64,000 bases of DNA from Escherichia phage vB_EcoM_F1, in the sequence record NC_054912.1. The stretch is one strand, 5' to 3'. Under the pieces are notes generated by a model. The model made no database searches, was not told where the DNA came from, and was given only the letters and a program-made list of their open reading frames with translations. Shown here one piece after another: positions 1,394-11,365 of this stretch; position 1 is the stretch's first letter; each line of letters opens with the position of its first letter. The position numbers and the translations under genes are program-made.

Positions 1394-1423
1394 ATACTAT
1401 CACAGTTTTAGGAGAAAGTAAAC
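1394..1423 (-). promoter_or_regulatory. early-type promoter (-35 GTTTAC, 18 nt spacer, -10 TAGTAT) overlapping a stem-loop, upstream of the IP-like gene
   Basis: minus-strand GTTTAC at 1423-1418 and TAGTAT at 1399-1394; inverted repeat aactgtga/tcacagtt 1384-1407. Confidence 0.45.
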
Positions 1424-5428: not shown

Positions 5429-5458
5429 ATAATATCTCAATCATGAGCCTATGTAAAC
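5429..5458 (-). promoter_or_regulatory. early-type promoter plus stem-loop cassette (GTTTAC-N18-TATTAT)
   Basis: GTTTAC 5458-5453; 10 bp inverted repeat ataggctcat/atgagcctat 5421-5452. Confidence 0.45.
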
Positions 5459-5766: not shown

Positions 5767-5796
5767 ATAGTACCATGGAAGAACAGGGATGTAAAC
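5767..5796 (-). promoter_or_regulatory. early-type promoter GTTTAC-N18-TACTAT
   Basis: minus GTTTAC 5796-5791 preceded by TTTCACAAA, -10 TACTAT 5772-5767. Confidence 0.45.
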
Positions 5797-5924
5797 CATT
5801 TTGTGAAAAAAATTTTTAAAAGTTTTAGGGAATTCTAGGGAGGGATGGGCAATTAAAGGATAGGATAATATATTATAAAGGGTATAAACTAAATGATGCC
5901 TAGAGAGGTCCAGAAAGGCCTAGA

Positions 5925-5959
5925 TACCAAAAAGCCCCAACCTTTCGGCTAGGGCTAAG
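5925..5959 (-). repeat. 35 nt direct repeat copy 1 (terminator cassette)
   Basis: taccaaaaagccccaacctttcggctagggctaag; second copy at 6484-6518 with 3 mismatches. Confidence 0.8.
5928..5956 (-). terminator. rho-independent terminator hairpin with GAAA tetraloop and T-run (minus strand)
   Basis: stem agcccc...ggggct 5933-5956 with A-run 5928-5932 on plus; directly after the stop of ORF 5964-6437. Confidence 0.6.
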
Positions 5960-5963
5960 AATG

Positions 5964-6437
5964 TTATTTGATTTGTTTAGCAGACCAAATGCGGTCTTTA
6001 ATAATTTTTTGGATGTCTTCAACATACTCAAGAGAGTGAGCATGTGGGTTATCTTTGAAACTATAAGCACGAGCTAGTTTTTGGCCTTCAGTTTTGATTA
6101 CTAAAAGCTCTTTAAGGATAGCTTCATATTTGGAGATAATTCCTTTAACAATATTTTTCTCTTGTGCGACTTTAGGATCTGCTTTAGGAGCAGGTTTACC
6201 CGAAGCCTTTGCAAAAGCAGCGCCAGTAGCAACTAAACTTTTCCAGGCCATACTAACTGCATTTCCCGTAAATCCTTCCGCTTTCATGTCGCGTGCGAAC
6301 TGGAATCGTGATTCATCAGAAGCATCTTTGTAAGAATATTTACCCGCTGCAATGGCTGCTTTTGCGACAGCTTGAATTTCGGTGCTAGATGCTTCATTTA
6401 ACACCGCTTCATTTAAAAATTGAGTATATGATTTCAT
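5964..6437 (-). CDS. internal-protein-like protein with capsid-targeting-sequence-like N-terminus
   Basis: 157 aa; N-terminus MKSYTQFLNEAV resembles T4 IP CTS; Ala/Lys-rich; late promoter upstream; flanked by repeated terminators. Confidence 0.6.
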   Translation of the reverse strand: MKSYTQFLNEAVLNEASSTEIQAVAKAAIAAGKYSYKDASDESRFQFARDMKAEGFTGNAVSMAWKSLVATGAAFAKASGKPAPKADPKVAQEKNIVKGIISKYEAILKELLVIKTEGQKLARAYSFKDNPHAHSLEYVEDIQKIIKDRIWSAKQIK

Positions 6438-6477
6438 CTTATTTCCTGTTTTAATTCGTGGATTTAATATACTACTA

Positions 6478-6485
6478 TATTTATA
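6478..6485 (-). promoter_or_regulatory. T4 late-promoter box TATAAATA upstream of the IP-like gene
   Basis: minus-strand TATAAATA directly after the terminator T-run, then AGGAAA RBS and ATG at 6437. Confidence 0.55.
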
Positions 6486-6518
6486 CCAAAAAGCCCCAAC
6501 CTTTCGGTCGGGGCTAAG
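6484..6518 (-). repeat. 35 nt direct repeat copy 2 (terminator cassette)
   Basis: taccaaaaagccccaacctttcggtcggggctaag. Confidence 0.8.
6487..6515 (-). terminator. rho-independent terminator ending the tRNA / stable-RNA transcription unit
   Basis: hairpin 6492-6515 plus T-run on minus strand. Confidence 0.6.
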
Positions 6519-6824
6519 CCTTGCGGCAACCTTGTCGGGGTTCCACCTGCTAAGGCAAGTGTTTGTACGAAACGCCGGGATTCGAACCCGGTTATTAAGC
6601 AGTTGACGCTACTCAATATTTTTAAAAGGCCATATCTCGACCATATCCGAACGTTCCGTCAAAAACGCTACTCGGCTTATGGCAAAGATATTTCCTCGAA
6701 TCGATAATTCGGTGCGCCGTTTCTGCTGTGATGTAAGAGGGCATCAATAAACGCAAAGATTATTAACGCAATTCCTTACTCAGGGAACATCAGTCCGACG
6801 ACTTACCGGTAGCGACCCGGTTTC
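6516..6824 (-). ncRNA. putative small stable RNA gene(s), position of T4 rnaC/rnaD (species 1/2 RNAs)
   Basis: about 310 bp with no ORF of 60 aa or more in any frame in a dense genome; tRNA-like T-arm ccgggTTCGAATcccgg at 6578-6592; between tRNA-Arg and a terminator. Confidence 0.3.
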
Positions 6825-7175
6825 TTAATATTCTTTTAAAGAATCAATATATTCACGGCGTTTACGCCACAAATCAATTGCTTCATACGCGGATTCAGCA
6901 TTTCGAATTGGTCGGCATTTATGTAAAGACTTATGATTTTGATATTTTGTAGATAATGGAATTTTATCTAAAAGGTCTTTACGTTCAAAGTATTCGTAAC
7001 CATCTAAGCCAAATGAACGATTTTTGAGAAATTGCCAATGACCAAATTCGTTTTGAATATAAATATAATCCGCATGTTGATAAAGTAAATTAATTTCACG
7101 AAATGAGATATGTTTTTCATATTCATTGAAGTAAAATGTTAAATCATGAACTACTAAATAAACATTACCTTTCAT
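6825..7175 (-). CDS. hypothetical protein
   Basis: track ORF extends to 7223 into tRNA-Arg; ATG at 7175 with GAGGAAA RBS gives a 116 aa product without overlap. Confidence 0.45.
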   Translation of the reverse strand: MKGNVYLVVHDLTFYFNEYEKHISFREINLLYQHADYIYIQNEFGHWQFLKNRSFGLDGYEYFERKDLLDKIPLSTKYQNHKSLHKCRPIRNAESAYEAIDLWRKRREYIDSLKEY

Positions 7176-7193
7176 ATTTTCCTCACTTATAAT

Positions 7194-7270
<77 letters not shown>

Positions 7271-7273
7271 TAA

Positions 7274-7939
7274 TTAAAATTTCATTTTTCGACCTTTAAA
7301 CCATCCTTCTGGAATTGGGTCAGTTTTCTTAATACGTTTAGAAACTTTTTCATCTAATGAATGAATCCACATCATACCAAATTGGGAATTCTTTTCACCT
7401 TTCTGGTGATTATTTTTAGCGTGAATTTCTTTCATTTTATTAATAGTTTCAAGAGTATGATGCTTATTTAAAAATCTGCTATTATTTAAAAATTTTTCCC
7501 TGTATTCAGGAGTTGACCACAAGCGTTTAAATACATTTGAACCATGTTTACGATATTTTTCTTGAAGTAAAATATCATTTTTAAAACGTGACTTAAACGA
7601 TTTAGCTCCTTTTAAACTAGCGTCTTTCTTCTGGTTTAGCATCTCAGGAATATTTATATGATCCCATCCGCCTTCACCGCCAAGTTTTAAATTATACACA
7701 TCTGGTCTATTTAAAAACTCTTCTGTGACAATATTTTTCTCGGCTTCAAGCATAGATTCTTTATCATCAAAATATTCTAATATTTCTTTAGAAAAATTTT
7801 CTATACCATACCTGTCTTGGGCTCTTTTTAATAATTTACCAGAACCCATATATCCATCATCTAAATTTTCGGTAGAATGCACACCAATATAAATTTTATT
7901 ATTAATTTTATTTGTTATTTTATAAGTGTAATGGAACAT
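7274..7939 (-). CDS. segB: GIY-YIG homing endonuclease (SegB-like) within the tRNA cluster
   Basis: 221 aa; N-terminal GIY-YIG module YKITNKINNKIYIGVH..DGYMGSG; same size and position as T4 segB. Confidence 0.85.
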   Translation of the reverse strand: MFHYTYKITNKINNKIYIGVHSTENLDDGYMGSGKLLKRAQDRYGIENFSKEILEYFDDKESMLEAEKNIVTEEFLNRPDVYNLKLGGEGGWDHINIPEMLNQKKDASLKGAKSFKSRFKNDILLQEKYRKHGSNVFKRLWSTPEYREKFLNNSRFLNKHHTLETINKMKEIHAKNNHQKGEKNSQFGMMWIHSLDEKVSKRIKKTDPIPEGWFKGRKMKF

Positions 7940-7980
7940 AAATATCTCCTATTTCTAAGAGTATTTATGTTCCCAAAATA

Positions 7981-8052
7981 TGGCCCTGGGTGGAATTGAA
8001 CCACCATCTGGCGATTATGAGTCGCTTGCTTGAACCTTCCAGCTACAGGGCC
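7981..8052 (-). tRNA. tRNA with anticodon CAU (T4 tRNA-Ile position; Met not excluded)
   Basis: manual fold: acceptor GGCCCUG/CAGGGCC, anticodon loop CU-CAU-AA, T-arm GGUGG-UUCAAUU-CCACC; no encoded CCA. Confidence 0.7.
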
Positions 8053-8053
8053 T

Positions 8054-8129
8054 TGGTGCTGATTGACGGAATCGAACCGCCGACATCCTCATTACAAGTG
8101 AGGTGCTCTACCTACTGAGCTAAATCAGC
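8054..8129 (-). tRNA. tRNA-Thr (anticodon UGU)
   Basis: acceptor GCUGAUU/AAUCAGC, D-arm GCUC-AGUAGGUA-GAGC, anticodon loop CU-UGU-AA, T-loop UUCGAUU, encoded CCA. Confidence 0.85.
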
Positions 8130-8136
8130 GAAATTA

Positions 8137-8223
8137 CGGAGGCGATAGGATTTGAACCTATGAGTCGCCGGAGCGACTGCCGGTTTTCAAGACCGGTGCA
8201 TTAAACCACTCTGCCACGCCTCC
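8137..8223 (-). tRNA. tRNA-Ser (anticodon UGA), long variable arm
   Basis: acceptor GGAGGCG/CGCCUCC, anticodon loop CU-UGA-AA, long variable arm, T-loop UUCAAAU; no encoded CCA; 2 nt after tRNA-Pro. Confidence 0.8.
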
Positions 8224-8225
8224 AG

Positions 8226-8299
8226 TCTCCGCGGCAGGATTTGAACCTACGACATTCTGCTCCCAAAGCAGACGCTCTACCAAACTGAGCTACACGGAG
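8226..8299 (-). tRNA. tRNA-Pro (anticodon UGG)
   Basis: acceptor CUCCGUG/CGCGGAG, D-arm GCUC..GAGC, anticodon loop UU-UGG-GA, T-loop UUCAAAU; no encoded CCA. Confidence 0.8.
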
Positions 8300-8309
8300 T
8301 AAATTAAAT

Positions 8310-8383
<74 letters not shown>

Positions 8384-8388
8384 AAATT

Positions 8389-8475
8389 TGGTGCGAGAAG
8401 TGGGACTCGAACCCACAAGGAAATCATTCCGCAGCATTTTAAGTGCTGTGCCTTTACCAATTTGACCATTCTCGC
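8389..8475 (-). tRNA. tRNA-Leu (anticodon UAA), long variable arm
   Basis: acceptor GCGAGAA/UUCUCGC, anticodon loop CU-UAA-AA, long variable arm, T-loop UUCGAGU, encoded CCA. Confidence 0.8.
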
Positions 8476-8476
8476 G

Positions 8477-8549
8477 CTGGGAATAAAGGACTCGAACCTT
8501 TGCATCCTGGAATCAAAATCCAGTGCCTTACCAACTTGGCTAATTCCCA
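8477..8549 (-). tRNA. tRNA-Gln (anticodon UUG)
   Basis: acceptor UGGGAAU/AUUCCCA, D-arm GCCA..GGC, anticodon loop UU-UUG-AU, T-loop UUCGAGU; discriminator G, no CCA. Confidence 0.75.
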
Positions 8550-8618
8550 ATTATTAACAAAGGCTCTTAAGCAAGAACCCTTGATGATAGAGGGTATTAA
8601 TCAGTGCGATATAAGTTA

Positions 8619-8643
8619 ATAATAACAAATAATTCTTAAAGCA
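8619..8643 (-). promoter_or_regulatory. middle-type promoter (MotA box TGCTTTA plus -10 TATTAT) upstream of the tRNA cluster
   Basis: minus-strand ataTGCTTTA at 8637-8643, 12 nt spacer, TATTAT at 8624-8619. Confidence 0.4.
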
Positions 8644-8646
8644 TAT

Positions 8647-8934
8647 TTACCATTTATGATGATACATACTTACGATGCATTCAAGACCCAAAGGATTCTT
8701 GAAAATATCATATTCAAGAGGACCTTTTTCTGTTTCAATAAAGAAATCAAAATTTACTGTATTAAATTTACGGTCTTCCTTTACTAATTTAACCTGAGAA
8801 GATGAACGGTCAATGTAAACCTTTTCAACTTCAAAACACGTTAAAATGCCATAATCATCAATCAAGGCTTTGGCTGCTTCTTGATCATATTTATATCCAT
8901 TTTCAACGGATGATACTTTCGCATAAAGAATCAT
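8647..8934 (-). CDS. hypothetical protein
   Basis: 95 aa ORF with ATG start. Confidence 0.5.
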   Translation of the reverse strand: MILYAKVSSVENGYKYDQEAAKALIDDYGILTCFEVEKVYIDRSSSQVKLVKEDRKFNTVNFDFFIETEKGPLEYDIFKNPLGLECIVSMYHHKW

Positions 8935-8936
8935 TA

Positions 8937-9317
8937 TCAGCCTTCATCAACAATAGTATGAGTGTGGGCATTTACAATTTGCCACCAATCAAAGCGATTA
9001 GAACCATACATCGGTTTGTTTTCATTTTCTTTGATAATATCACGGAGTTCATCTTCGGTAGCGGCTTTCGCGATTAAATCAGCATATCCACCACGAGGAT
9101 AATAATTATCACCTGCAAAAAGTAAAAAGTTTGGTTTAATATTATTAAACTCTTCAAGAGTAATAACTGTTCCACCAGGTTGAACAATATCTACATAACT
9201 ATATCCTAATTTTTGAGCAGCATCTACTGCTTCAAGCAGGGTATCATGAGCCCATCCAATTTGGCAATCTGGCTTTTCAGATGGATTAGCCTGATAATCC
9301 GCGTACACTTTATACAT
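8937..9317 (-). CDS. hypothetical protein
   Basis: track ORF starts at GTG 9326; ATG at 9317 has AAGGTG RBS. Confidence 0.5.
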   Translation of the reverse strand: MYKVYADYQANPSEKPDCQIGWAHDTLLEAVDAAQKLGYSYVDIVQPGGTVITLEEFNNIKPNFLLFAGDNYYPRGGYADLIAKAATEDELRDIIKENENKPMYGSNRFDWWQIVNAHTHTIVDEG

Positions 9318-9318
9318 T

Positions 9319-9504
9319 CTATTCACCTTTAGAAATTTTATCCATAACGATAGCGATTAAACCAACTAAAAATGCTACTACAAGTGAAAAAACATTTTCT
9401 GCTGTAGTTAATAATCCGCATATAAATCCAACAAACATTGAAAAACTAAAAGCGGAAGCAGAAATTGCAATAGCAACATTTCGAATTAATTCACAACGTT
9501 TCAT
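9319..9504 (-). CDS. small membrane protein (two TM helices)
   Basis: 61 aa, ATG start, hydrophobic; preceded by a promoter/stem-loop cassette. Confidence 0.5.
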   Translation of the reverse strand: MKRCELIRNVAIAISASAFSFSMFVGFICGLLTTAENVFSLVVAFLVGLIAIVMDKISKGE

Positions 9505-9575
9505 TTTATTCTCCTCAGTAGTTGATAGGGTAATAGTATCACAACTAAAACCCTATGTAAACAACTTTGTGAAAA
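9505..9575 (-). promoter_or_regulatory. early promoter plus stem-loop cassette, copy A (GTTTAC-N18-TACTAT)
   Basis: TTTCACAAAGTTGTTTACAT on minus strand; GTTTAC 9562-9557; TACTAT 9538-9533; stem atagggt/accctat; about 45 nt shared with copy B. Confidence 0.5.
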
Positions 9576-9579
9576 TTTA

Positions 9580-9870
9580 TTACAAAAGATTTTTTGCAAT
9601 AATTTTAAGCTGAGCTACTGAAATATGCTTGGCTTTAAACAAAGCAGTTTCTTCAGCAGGGGAGATAACGATTGTAGCACCATCTTTCTTAGCGGACCAT
9701 CCATCACCCAGGTAAACAGTACCTTTGACTTCTTCGCCATCAACCAGACTAATCATTGGTTTACCTTCTCGTCCTTTATTTGCTTTAATAACTTCAGAAG
9801 TAAGAGTAGCTTCGGTAATAGTAGAAACCGGGGTAGTTGTAGTAGAAGTAAATTCTTTAAATGTTTTCAT
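9580..9870 (-). CDS. internal protein I-like head protein with CTS-like N-terminus
   Basis: 96 aa; N-terminus MKTFKEFTSTT..ITE; size and position (between tRNAs and 57B) as for T4 ipI; sequence diverged. Confidence 0.6.
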   Translation of the reverse strand: MKTFKEFTSTTTTPVSTITEATLTSEVIKANKGREGKPMISLVDGEEVKGTVYLGDGWSAKKDGATIVISPAEETALFKAKHISVAQLKIIAKNLL

Positions 9871-9942
9871 TTTATTTTCCTAATTAATTTTGATGAGGTA
9901 ATAGTATCACTACCTCATCAGCATGTAAACAACTTTGTGAAA

Positions 9943-9945
<3 letters not shown>
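9871..9945 (-). promoter_or_regulatory. early promoter plus stem-loop cassette, copy B (GTTTAC-N18-TACTAT)
   Basis: GTTTAC 9930-9925; TACTAT 9906-9901 inside the loop of 9 bp stem gatgaggta/tacctcatc. Confidence 0.5.
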
Positions 9946-10639
<694 letters not shown>

Positions 10640-10640
<1 letters not shown>

Positions 10641-11365
10641 TATAGTACCTTTAGTGTATTTTTAATTTTAGAAAAAAGTTCTTCAAGAGAACCATCGTTT
10701 GTAATTACTAAATCGCCATCACGAATTGGCAATCCAGCTTCTGTAATATGTGTATCATTGGATTTTTGACCAGGACGAACTACATGAATTACTGTAGCAC
10801 CCATCGCCCTAGCCGCATCCATTTCATGATCTTGACGAGTATCAGGAACGATATAATAATCATAACCTGAGTTAAATTTATCAAGATAATCTAAAGCAAA
10901 TAATTTTACCCAGTACATGCGATCGAAGTTATTAACAATCAAATCCGTACCTAGGGCTTGCATCAGACGACGGACTGACCATTGATCTTCAATATTATTT
11001 ATAACGTCAATAATCTTGTTAAATGCTACGGAATTAACTGATTCTTGTCCTTCGTCATCAAAAACAAACACACCTTTAATTGGGCTTTTACCATTAAGAT
11101 AGCAAAATGCTTGTTCCATAATCGTGATTACTTCTGATTTAGTCAGATTTAAATTAGTCTCACGATCATAGTCAATTCCTTCAAACTCTTTACGAGTTAA
11201 GCAAGGATAGTAAGTGTTTTCTGCAAATACGCCCCATGCATAAGCCAATGCATCCTTAATAGGACCAGCAAGTTGGTATTTAACTGCAGAATAATTGCTC
11301 ATGATAAAATCAGCAGTAGTATCTTTTCCACTACGCTTTACACCGCTTAAAAAGACTAGTTTCAT
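10640..11365 (-). CDS. 1: deoxynucleoside monophosphate kinase gp1
   Basis: 241 aa; N-terminal P-loop LSGVKRSGKDT; T4 gene order. Confidence 0.9.

Follow-up and report, generated by a model that had tools for sequence, protein, structure and literature searches.

The gene at 9580-9870 of the window (the whole stretch of DNA analysed, 64,000 nt of Escherichia phage vB_EcoM_F1, NC_054912.1) occupies the position at which T4 carries ipI, and it lies between two copies of an element that combines a promoter with an inverted repeat. This arrangement raises the question of whether the gene is a diverged, hypervariable anti-restriction allele, as the original prediction had proposed, and whether the flanking elements take part in the exchange of accessory genes among related phages. 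Our analysis indicates that this is very probably a canonical ipI locus in the T4 configuration, with the repeated early-promoter/hairpin elements serving as cassette crossover points.

The genomic setting is that of T4. In a megablast search of GenBank phages, the region 9300-10100 gave a 100% match to Escherichia phage vB_EcoM_FN (FN; MZ170041, Tequatrovirus) and matched 825 phage records, 239 of which covered at least 80% of the query. A 700-nt stretch around ipI, with the intergenic DNA and both elements included, is 97% identical to T4, and T4 itself carries both elements in nearly the same form. Every gene in this part of the window is on the - strand, and the gene order in the direction of transcription (gene 3, gene 1 encoding dNMP kinase, 57A, 57B, ipI, trna.4, trna.3, trna.2 and the tRNA cluster) is the same in T4. 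The predicted ipI position, between 57B/acb1 and trna.4, is accordingly the T4 position. Within the tRNA cluster, an ORF of 221 aa at 7274-7939 on the - strand encodes a homing endonuclease of the GIY-YIG type; it stands at the T4 segB position and has equal length (666 nt).

The product of ORF 9580-9870 is identical to T4 IpI (NP_049749) at 92 of 96 residues (96%). The Pfam model PF11634 (IPI_T4) matched residues 21-96 across the whole mature domain (model positions 1-76 of 76; E 1.3e-51), with a score of 172.9 bits against a curated cut-off of 25, and the ORF belongs to PHROG 4363, 'internal virion protein'. In PDB 2JUB, the solved chain of mature IPI*, 73 of 76 residues are identical, and the chain begins with ATLTSE, which corresponds to residue 21 of the ORF product. 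Directly before this sequence, the propeptide MKTFKEFTSTTTTPVSTITE ends in the (I/L)-x-E motif of the prohead protease, a cleavage site predicted from the sequence; the capsid-targeting-like N-terminus proposed originally, which starts MKTFKEF and ends ITE, was thus borne out by the 2JUB mature start right after it. Relative to T4, the propeptide contains one additional Thr (a 3-nt insertion in the alignment), and the mature part carries the substitutions I28V, A65V and H67Q. Because of the T4 identity, the IPI_T4 match and the agreement with 2JUB, ORF 9580-9870 is canonical T4 ipI and no diverged or novel allele.

The original prediction had described the remainder of the ORF as diverged from IPI, an impression that the actual IPI sequence does not bear out. 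A diverged, hypervariable allele in the ipI slot would agree with the polymorphism of the locus as a whole among T-even phages. However, the 96% identity to T4 IpI leaves three conservative changes in the 76 mature residues, and the mature domain, present in 290 phage records, is at least 90% identical in 278 of them (tblastn). Direct comparison with T4 IpI, Pfam and PDB led us to reject the idea, which we consider scarcely credible. The I28V/A65V/H67Q variant itself recurs at an identity of at least 99% in 26 phage records (tblastn). Judging from these alignments, the variable feature is which ip cassettes the locus contains, rather than the ipI sequence. In T4, the IPI propeptide directs the protein into the prohead core, and the prohead protease cleaves after ...ITE. 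The 76-aa product, IPI*, is injected together with the DNA and inhibits the type IV restriction enzyme GmrS/GmrD, which attacks glucosyl-hmC DNA, as established for T4 in work by Black and colleagues, among others. GmrSD of CT596 is specifically inhibited by T4 Ip1, and according to a 2025 paper, T4 Ip1, Ip2 and Ip3 each block a different GmrSD subtype (PMC12373910).

Table. Features of the ipI locus, its conserved neighbours and three further promoter sites in the window.
Feature	Position	Strand	Details	Basis
57B (anti-CBASS Acb1)	9943-10398	-	conserved neighbour upstream of the cassette site	Pfam PF23474 Acb1, E 2.6e-60
Repeat block TTTCACAAAGTTGTTTACAT, ipI-proximal element	9923-9942	-	contains the -35	exact 20-mer
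Predicted ipI early promoter (sigma-70/T4-early type)	9901-9929	-	-35 TTTACA 9924-9929; 17-nt spacer; TG 9908-9909; -10 TACTAT 9901-9906	promoter scan, pattern search
Inverted repeat TGATGAGGTA / TACCTCATCA around the ipI -10	9891-9920	-	arms 9911-9920/9891-9900	10 bp, perfect
ipI CDS	9580-9870	-	96 aa with propeptide; stop 9580-9582	ORF list, T4 IpI alignment, PF11634, PHROG 4363
N-terminal propeptide / capsid-targeting sequence	9811-9870	-		2JUB mature start, T4 alignment
Mature IPI* (76 aa)	9583-9810	-		T4 IpI and 2JUB comparison
Repeat block TTTCACAAAGTTGTTTACAT, trna.4-proximal element	9555-9574	-		exact 20-mer
Predicted trna.4 early promoter	9533-9561	-	-35 TTTACA 9556-9561; TG 9540-9541; -10 TACTAT 9533-9538	promoter scan, pattern search
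Inverted repeat ATAGGGTTTTAGT / ACTATTACCCTAT around the trna.4 -10	9525-9556	-	arms 9544-9556/9525-9537	13 nt, 85%
trna.4 (61-aa predicted membrane protein)	9319-9504	-	conserved neighbour downstream of the cassette site	PHROG 1692, T4 annotation
Further site	1394-1423		hairpin across -10; then internal-protein gene	z -2.9
Further site	5429-5458		hairpin across -10; then ORF of unknown function	z -4.85
Further site	5767-5796		promoter, no hairpin	z +0.58

The gene is flanked by a direct repeat of 61 nt (9522-9582 and 9890-9950), 79% identical and 368 bp apart. Alignment of the elements revealed similarity beyond chance: the 20-mer TTTCACAAAGTTGTTTACAT occurs in exactly two copies in the 64-kb window, against 0.01 expected, together with one copy bearing two mismatches at 5789-5808, and the two ipI-flanking copies also share an exact 14-mer, far beyond the window-wide consensus. 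The promoter pattern GTTTAC-N15-TGNTANNNT (GTTTAC-N15-TG-N-TA-NNN-T) was found at 6 sites in 64 kb, all on the - strand, where 0.02 were expected. Both flanking sites were called by the promoter scan and show TTTACA-17-TACTAT with an extended -10 TG; as read from the sequence, an A/T-rich stretch lies upstream of each, and the downstream gene's SD and start codon stand at the 3' end. Each element comprises the A/T-rich stretch, the block TTTCACAAAGTTGTTTACA with the -35, a 17-nt spacer, TG-n-TACTAT as the -10, the inverted repeat, the SD and the ATG, and each would act as the early promoter of its downstream gene, ipI and then trna.4. The record of phage SA21RB lists T4 early promoters at the homologous sites, with predicted terminators that overlap them. 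In a T4 time course, the RNAs of ipI and trna.4 fell into the 'early' class and those of 57B and 57A, farther upstream, into the 'middle' class (supplement of PMC9697503), which fits a transcription unit beginning between 57B and ipI. We infer that transcription starts near 9894 for ipI and near 9526 for trna.4 on the - strand, and that both promoters fire early.

Comparison among relatives revealed how the content of this interval changes. The states between 57B and trna.4 were surveyed in a spread sample of 839 records matching 9250-10450, from which representatives were compared, and eight Tequatrovirus loci were used for the detailed comparison of elements. The interval contains ipI in FN and T4, ip5 in ime09, ipI with a 77-aa ip gene in KMB42 and RB14, ipV with ipVI in PST and HP3, and the series ip5, ipI, 57B fragment, ip5, ipI and ip8 in CM8; slur02 and bov10K1 have no ip gene. 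The element precedes every ip gene in all eight Tequatrovirus loci. The interval in slur02 and bov10K1 is exactly 368 bp shorter than in FN (833 versus 1201), a shortfall equal to the repeat spacing. In slur02, there is a single chimeric element, whose left side is the 57B-proximal flank and whose right side has the trna.4-type stem and leader, as expected for the product of a crossover in the shared 20-mer. Chimeras of stem and leader occur elsewhere as well, for example at CM8 ipI, which combines the ATAGGGT stem with the ipI leader. In ungapped comparisons, homology with FN from the 57B side spans the element, the SD and about seven propeptide codons, reaching to about 9850; it returns at 9574 in ime09 and slur02, and in the -10 region, at about 9529-9538, in PST and HP3. 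Insertions, deletions and replacements between relatives (the slur02 deletion and the ip5, ipV/ipVI and ipI-plus-ip arrays) end in the elements.

The architecture of 57B, element, ip gene, element and trna.4-like gene was also found in Mosigvirus, Dhakavirus and Jiaodavirus, but the elements are divergent, or have no clear hairpin, in Mosigvirus and at one of the two Jiaodavirus junctions (the Jiaodavirus one being without a clear hairpin), a point that counts against the favoured explanation. The megablast matches to Klebsiella and Raoultella Jiaodavirus phages cover only about 100 nt (9473-9574, comprising the trna.4 element, the leader and the first 10 codons) at about 92% identity, and the neighbouring genes in Jiaodavirus are too diverged for megablast detection. 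Between Tequatrovirus and Mosigvirus, the DNA of mature ipI is 85-92% identical, the neighbours are about 75% identical and the elements are least similar (53-68%), with the identity step falling inside the ipI gene. A recent transfer of ipI between these two genera was considered and set aside because purifying selection accounts for the data equally well. In Shigella phage CM8 (NC_054939, 1500-3401), the ip array is duplicated along with the 57B fragment, which represents either a true tandem duplication via the repeated elements or an assembly artefact.

The extent to which these repeats differ from ordinary promoters bears on the main rival explanation. Seven promoter sites aligned from the window are invariant only at GTTTAC and the -10. 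A scan of IMG/VR with the 16-mer CACAAAGTTGTTTACA returned 96 loci, mostly promoter consensus before unrelated genes or chance matches; the block is accordingly part of a general early-promoter consensus. Since much of the similarity is this T4-early-promoter consensus, whose signature CACAAAGTTGTTTACA...TGATACTAT...CTATCAA also stands before numerous unrelated genes of T4-like contigs, the repeats do not have to be 'mobile' elements themselves. The flanking repeats could thus be two strong T4 early promoters that match one long consensus, with recombination between them incidental and no dedicated shuffling mechanism, and T4 has been reported to recombine at very short homologies (PMC9391042). 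However, the exact 20-mer and 14-mer shared by the ipI-flanking copies go beyond the window consensus, and the endpoints of deletions and replacements lie in the elements. We therefore regard incidental recombination as a possible but rather unlikely account. It overlaps the favoured explanation of repeated elements as crossover points and differs only over selection for a shuffling role.

Both elements contain stable inverted repeats. The ipI-element RNA folds at -17.4 kcal/mol (z -6.45) and the trna.4-element RNA at -13.7 kcal/mol (z -3.59), so that, together with the 61-nt repeat, the proposed flanking of ipI by two copies of promoter plus inverted repeat was upheld. In each copy, the promoter spacer contains the 5' arm, while the 3' arm starts directly after the -10, and the arms are wholly different between the two window copies (CTGATGAGGTA versus ATAGGGT). 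In other genera, the two arms change together, as GGGTT/AACCC in Jiaodavirus and GGGCT/AGCCC and GGCCT/AGGCC in Dhakavirus, and also as GGTCT/AGACC; the Mosigvirus stem has 12 bp (GATAGGACTAT.../...ATAGTCCTATC). Because the 5' arm occurs in two registers and no single consensus structure can be written, a permutation test was chosen, based on 72 distinct promoter-containing elements of T4-like contigs that share TGATACTAT-NNNN-CTATCAA, with NNNN permuted among elements (2000 permutations). In 31 of the 72 elements, the 4 nt that follow the -10 had their exact reverse complement in the spacer, compared with 9.8 +/- 2.7 after permutation (maximum 19), a difference that gives no formal probability, as the 72 sequences are related to each other, while the compensatory pattern is clear. 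Additionally, the natural variant of the ipI stem in KMB42, ime09 and PST, TACCTCATCA to TATCTCATCA, forms a G-U rather than an A-C pair on the sense strand. Given that the arms covary and the natural variants keep G-U on the sense strand, selection appears to maintain the pairing, most simply in sense RNA. The same data bear on whether a dimeric DNA-binding regulator of early promoters uses the inverted repeat as its operator, which a palindrome-like sequence centred on the -10 could suggest. Arms that are entirely unlike in the two window copies argue against such an operator, and compensatory arm changes across genera, with the 5' arm in two registers, fit nucleic-acid pairing and not a sequence-specific protein site; we consider an operator very improbable.

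What the hairpins do is less easily settled. They might be rho-independent terminators that insulate the transcription of each cassette. This would agree with the WebGeSTer and TransTermHP terminator calls at both sites in phage SA21RB, with the different T4 temporal classes of 57B and ipI RNAs (PMC9697503), and with the RB49 PeSL stem-loop, which cut lacZ expression to about the same degree as rrnB T1 (PMC2839356). Nevertheless, the terminator scan called neither the hairpin at 9891-9920 nor that at 9525-9556, and the tails after the stems, AAAATTAATT and CAACTACTGA, contain no T/U-run of the kind that defines an intrinsic terminator. In addition, Arbiol et al. 2010 termed the stem-loops of T-even IP loci weaker and AT-rich (PMC2839356). 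On the - strand upstream of ipI, there is a single late-promoter motif, at 10996-11003, inside gene 1 and 1.1 kb distant; any late ipI RNA from this motif must pass the hairpin at 9891-9920, which speaks against strong termination. With no U-run and a negative terminator scan, classical intrinsic termination is doubtful, and identification of either hairpin as an intrinsic terminator was rejected on these grounds; insulation by termination in the broader sense remains a tentative reading to which we assign a minor share of the probability. A search with Rfam covariance models over 5800-10500 (E <= 0.1) returned tRNAs only and no family at the elements. If transcription begins about 7 nt after the -10, both arms precede the start, and the hairpin would be possible only in read-through RNA or single-stranded DNA. 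Because the U-run is missing and the late-promoter motif lies beyond the hairpin, the most likely role of the hairpin would be to attenuate or end-stabilise the upstream transcript in read-through RNA, rather than to terminate it fully.

The original prediction also pointed to similar elements at three other sites in the window. Two of them, at 1394-1423 and 5429-5458, combine promoter and hairpin as claimed; the third, at 5767-5796, proved to be a promoter only, although its block TTTCACAAA and leader TATCAACTACTGA also occur in the trna.4 element. A second internal-protein locus lies just downstream of the lysozyme gene e (1428-1922), with an ip gene of 157 aa (MKTYQEFITEA...) at 883-1356 on the - strand, which follows the early promoter and hairpin of site 1394-1423. 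Its product is 100% identical to PST ipIV and is not among T4 Ip1-3; from this comparison, the true difference from T4 in injected proteins appears to lie at 883-1356 and not at ipI. Another ORF of 157 aa, at 5964-6437 on the - strand, belongs to PHROG 2280, of unknown function, and its start, MKSYTQFLNE followed by A, resembles a capsid-targeting propeptide with an L-x-E site. A late-promoter motif, TATAAATA, stands just upstream at 6478-6485, and the ORF is bracketed by near-identical canonical terminator hairpins at about 6488-6514 and 5927-5956 (GCCCCGACC-GAAA-GGTTGGGGC and GCCCTAGCC-GAAA-GGTTGGGGC, each followed by T5). The ORF may belong to a cassette bounded by terminators and encode an internal protein that has gone unrecognised. 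Furthermore, in a subclass of T4-like early promoters from IMG/VR (for example, with N4 = AGAC and the leader CTATCAACTACAGGAG), the spacer arm CTCCTGTAG does not pair with the nucleotides directly behind the -10 but with CTACAGGAG farther downstream, which includes the Shine-Dalgarno sequence GGAG. In this subclass, the ribosome site would be sequestered in read-through RNA and free in the promoter's own transcripts. The T4 genes e, soc and 49 have the same SD-sequestering arrangement, with late promoters.

Taken as crossover points, the repeated elements offer a simple route for cassette exchange. Elements with their leader and propeptide codons recur as direct repeats and are thus usable for crossover; we infer that ordinary T4 homologous recombination at the repeated element, the leader and the first propeptide codons would delete, insert and swap ip genes. 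A more active mechanism is also conceivable, in which the inverted repeat would be a structure-specific recombination site, functionally attC-like, which the phage machinery for recombination or replication would recognise when single-stranded and which would actively drive the exchange of ip cassettes. Such a role is suggested by arms that covary in at least four T4-like genera while keeping their place directly behind the -10, entirely ahead of the predicted start, with the 5' arm in two registers. It was raised by the PeSL authors as speculation only (PMC2839356, PMC4122927), and we consider it improbable, though if true, it would mean that exchange goes beyond passive homology.

As a discovery, the locus carries little weight, given that textbooks or published work on T4 already cover the gene, what it does, its structure and the flanking elements, and that our comparison reproduces the published picture. 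Its value is as a clear illustration of the exchange of injected anti-restriction proteins among T-even phages, with empty, single-cassette and multi-cassette states bounded by the same element. Moreover, the covariation of hairpin arms across genera provides a concrete handle on stem-loop function.

Comparison with known systems places the locus more precisely. T4 IpI (NP_049749, PF11634, 2JUB) is alike in gene, position between 57B and trna.4, propeptide, cleavage site and flanking DNA; it differs in having no extra Thr in the propeptide and in carrying I28, A65 and H67 instead of V28, V65 and Q67. Both elements fit the T4 early promoter class in their extended -10 TG and A-rich upstream region, according to the consensus of Liebig and Ruger 1989 as cited in PMC9391042, and the SA21RB record quotes this consensus as GTTTAC(N14)gtggTAttaT. 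Unlike some early promoters in the window (4871, 5767), both add a covarying inverted repeat across the -10.

The resemblance to PeSL cassettes that shuffle accessory genes, which the original prediction had noted, holds, since presence, absence and replacement among relatives are bounded by the elements, and it had already been published. Arbiol et al. 2010 described the PeSLs of RB49 and phi1 as a strong early promoter plus a stem-loop, mostly located between the -35 and -10 or overlapping the -10; promoter activity was demonstrated, and mini-circles formed by recombination between neighbouring PeSLs (PMC2839356). As summarised there, Repoila et al. 1994 found PeSL-like sequences at two variable T-even IP loci, consisting of T4 early promoters with weaker, AT-rich stem-loops, which may explain IP shuffling (PMC2839356). 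Comeau et al. 2014 added T4/PST, restated the point on IP loci and gave the T4/PST PeSL consensus TTTACW-N17-TAYWAT (PMC4122927), which both ipI-flanking promoters fit. The ipI elements share with PeSLs the order of A/T-rich stretch, -35, 17 nt, -10 and stem-loop overlapping the -10, followed by SD and ATG; in both cases, small non-essential genes are flanked, and indels between relatives end inside. The ipI-element stems are AT-richer than the G-run/C-run stems of RB49 and phi1, and promoter activity, terminator activity and mini-circles were demonstrated for the RB49/phi1 PeSLs rather than for the ipI-flanking copies. According to Arbiol et al. 2010, the IP-locus elements are analogues and not homologues of the RB49 PeSLs. 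A further likeness, by analogy only, is to integron attC cassettes. Although no integrase and no dedicated site-specific recombination are known for the ipI locus, and each of its cassettes has its own promoter, in both systems small ORFs form an array with imperfect inverted repeats between them, the repeats are conserved in structure rather than in sequence, and cassettes are gained and lost at these sites.
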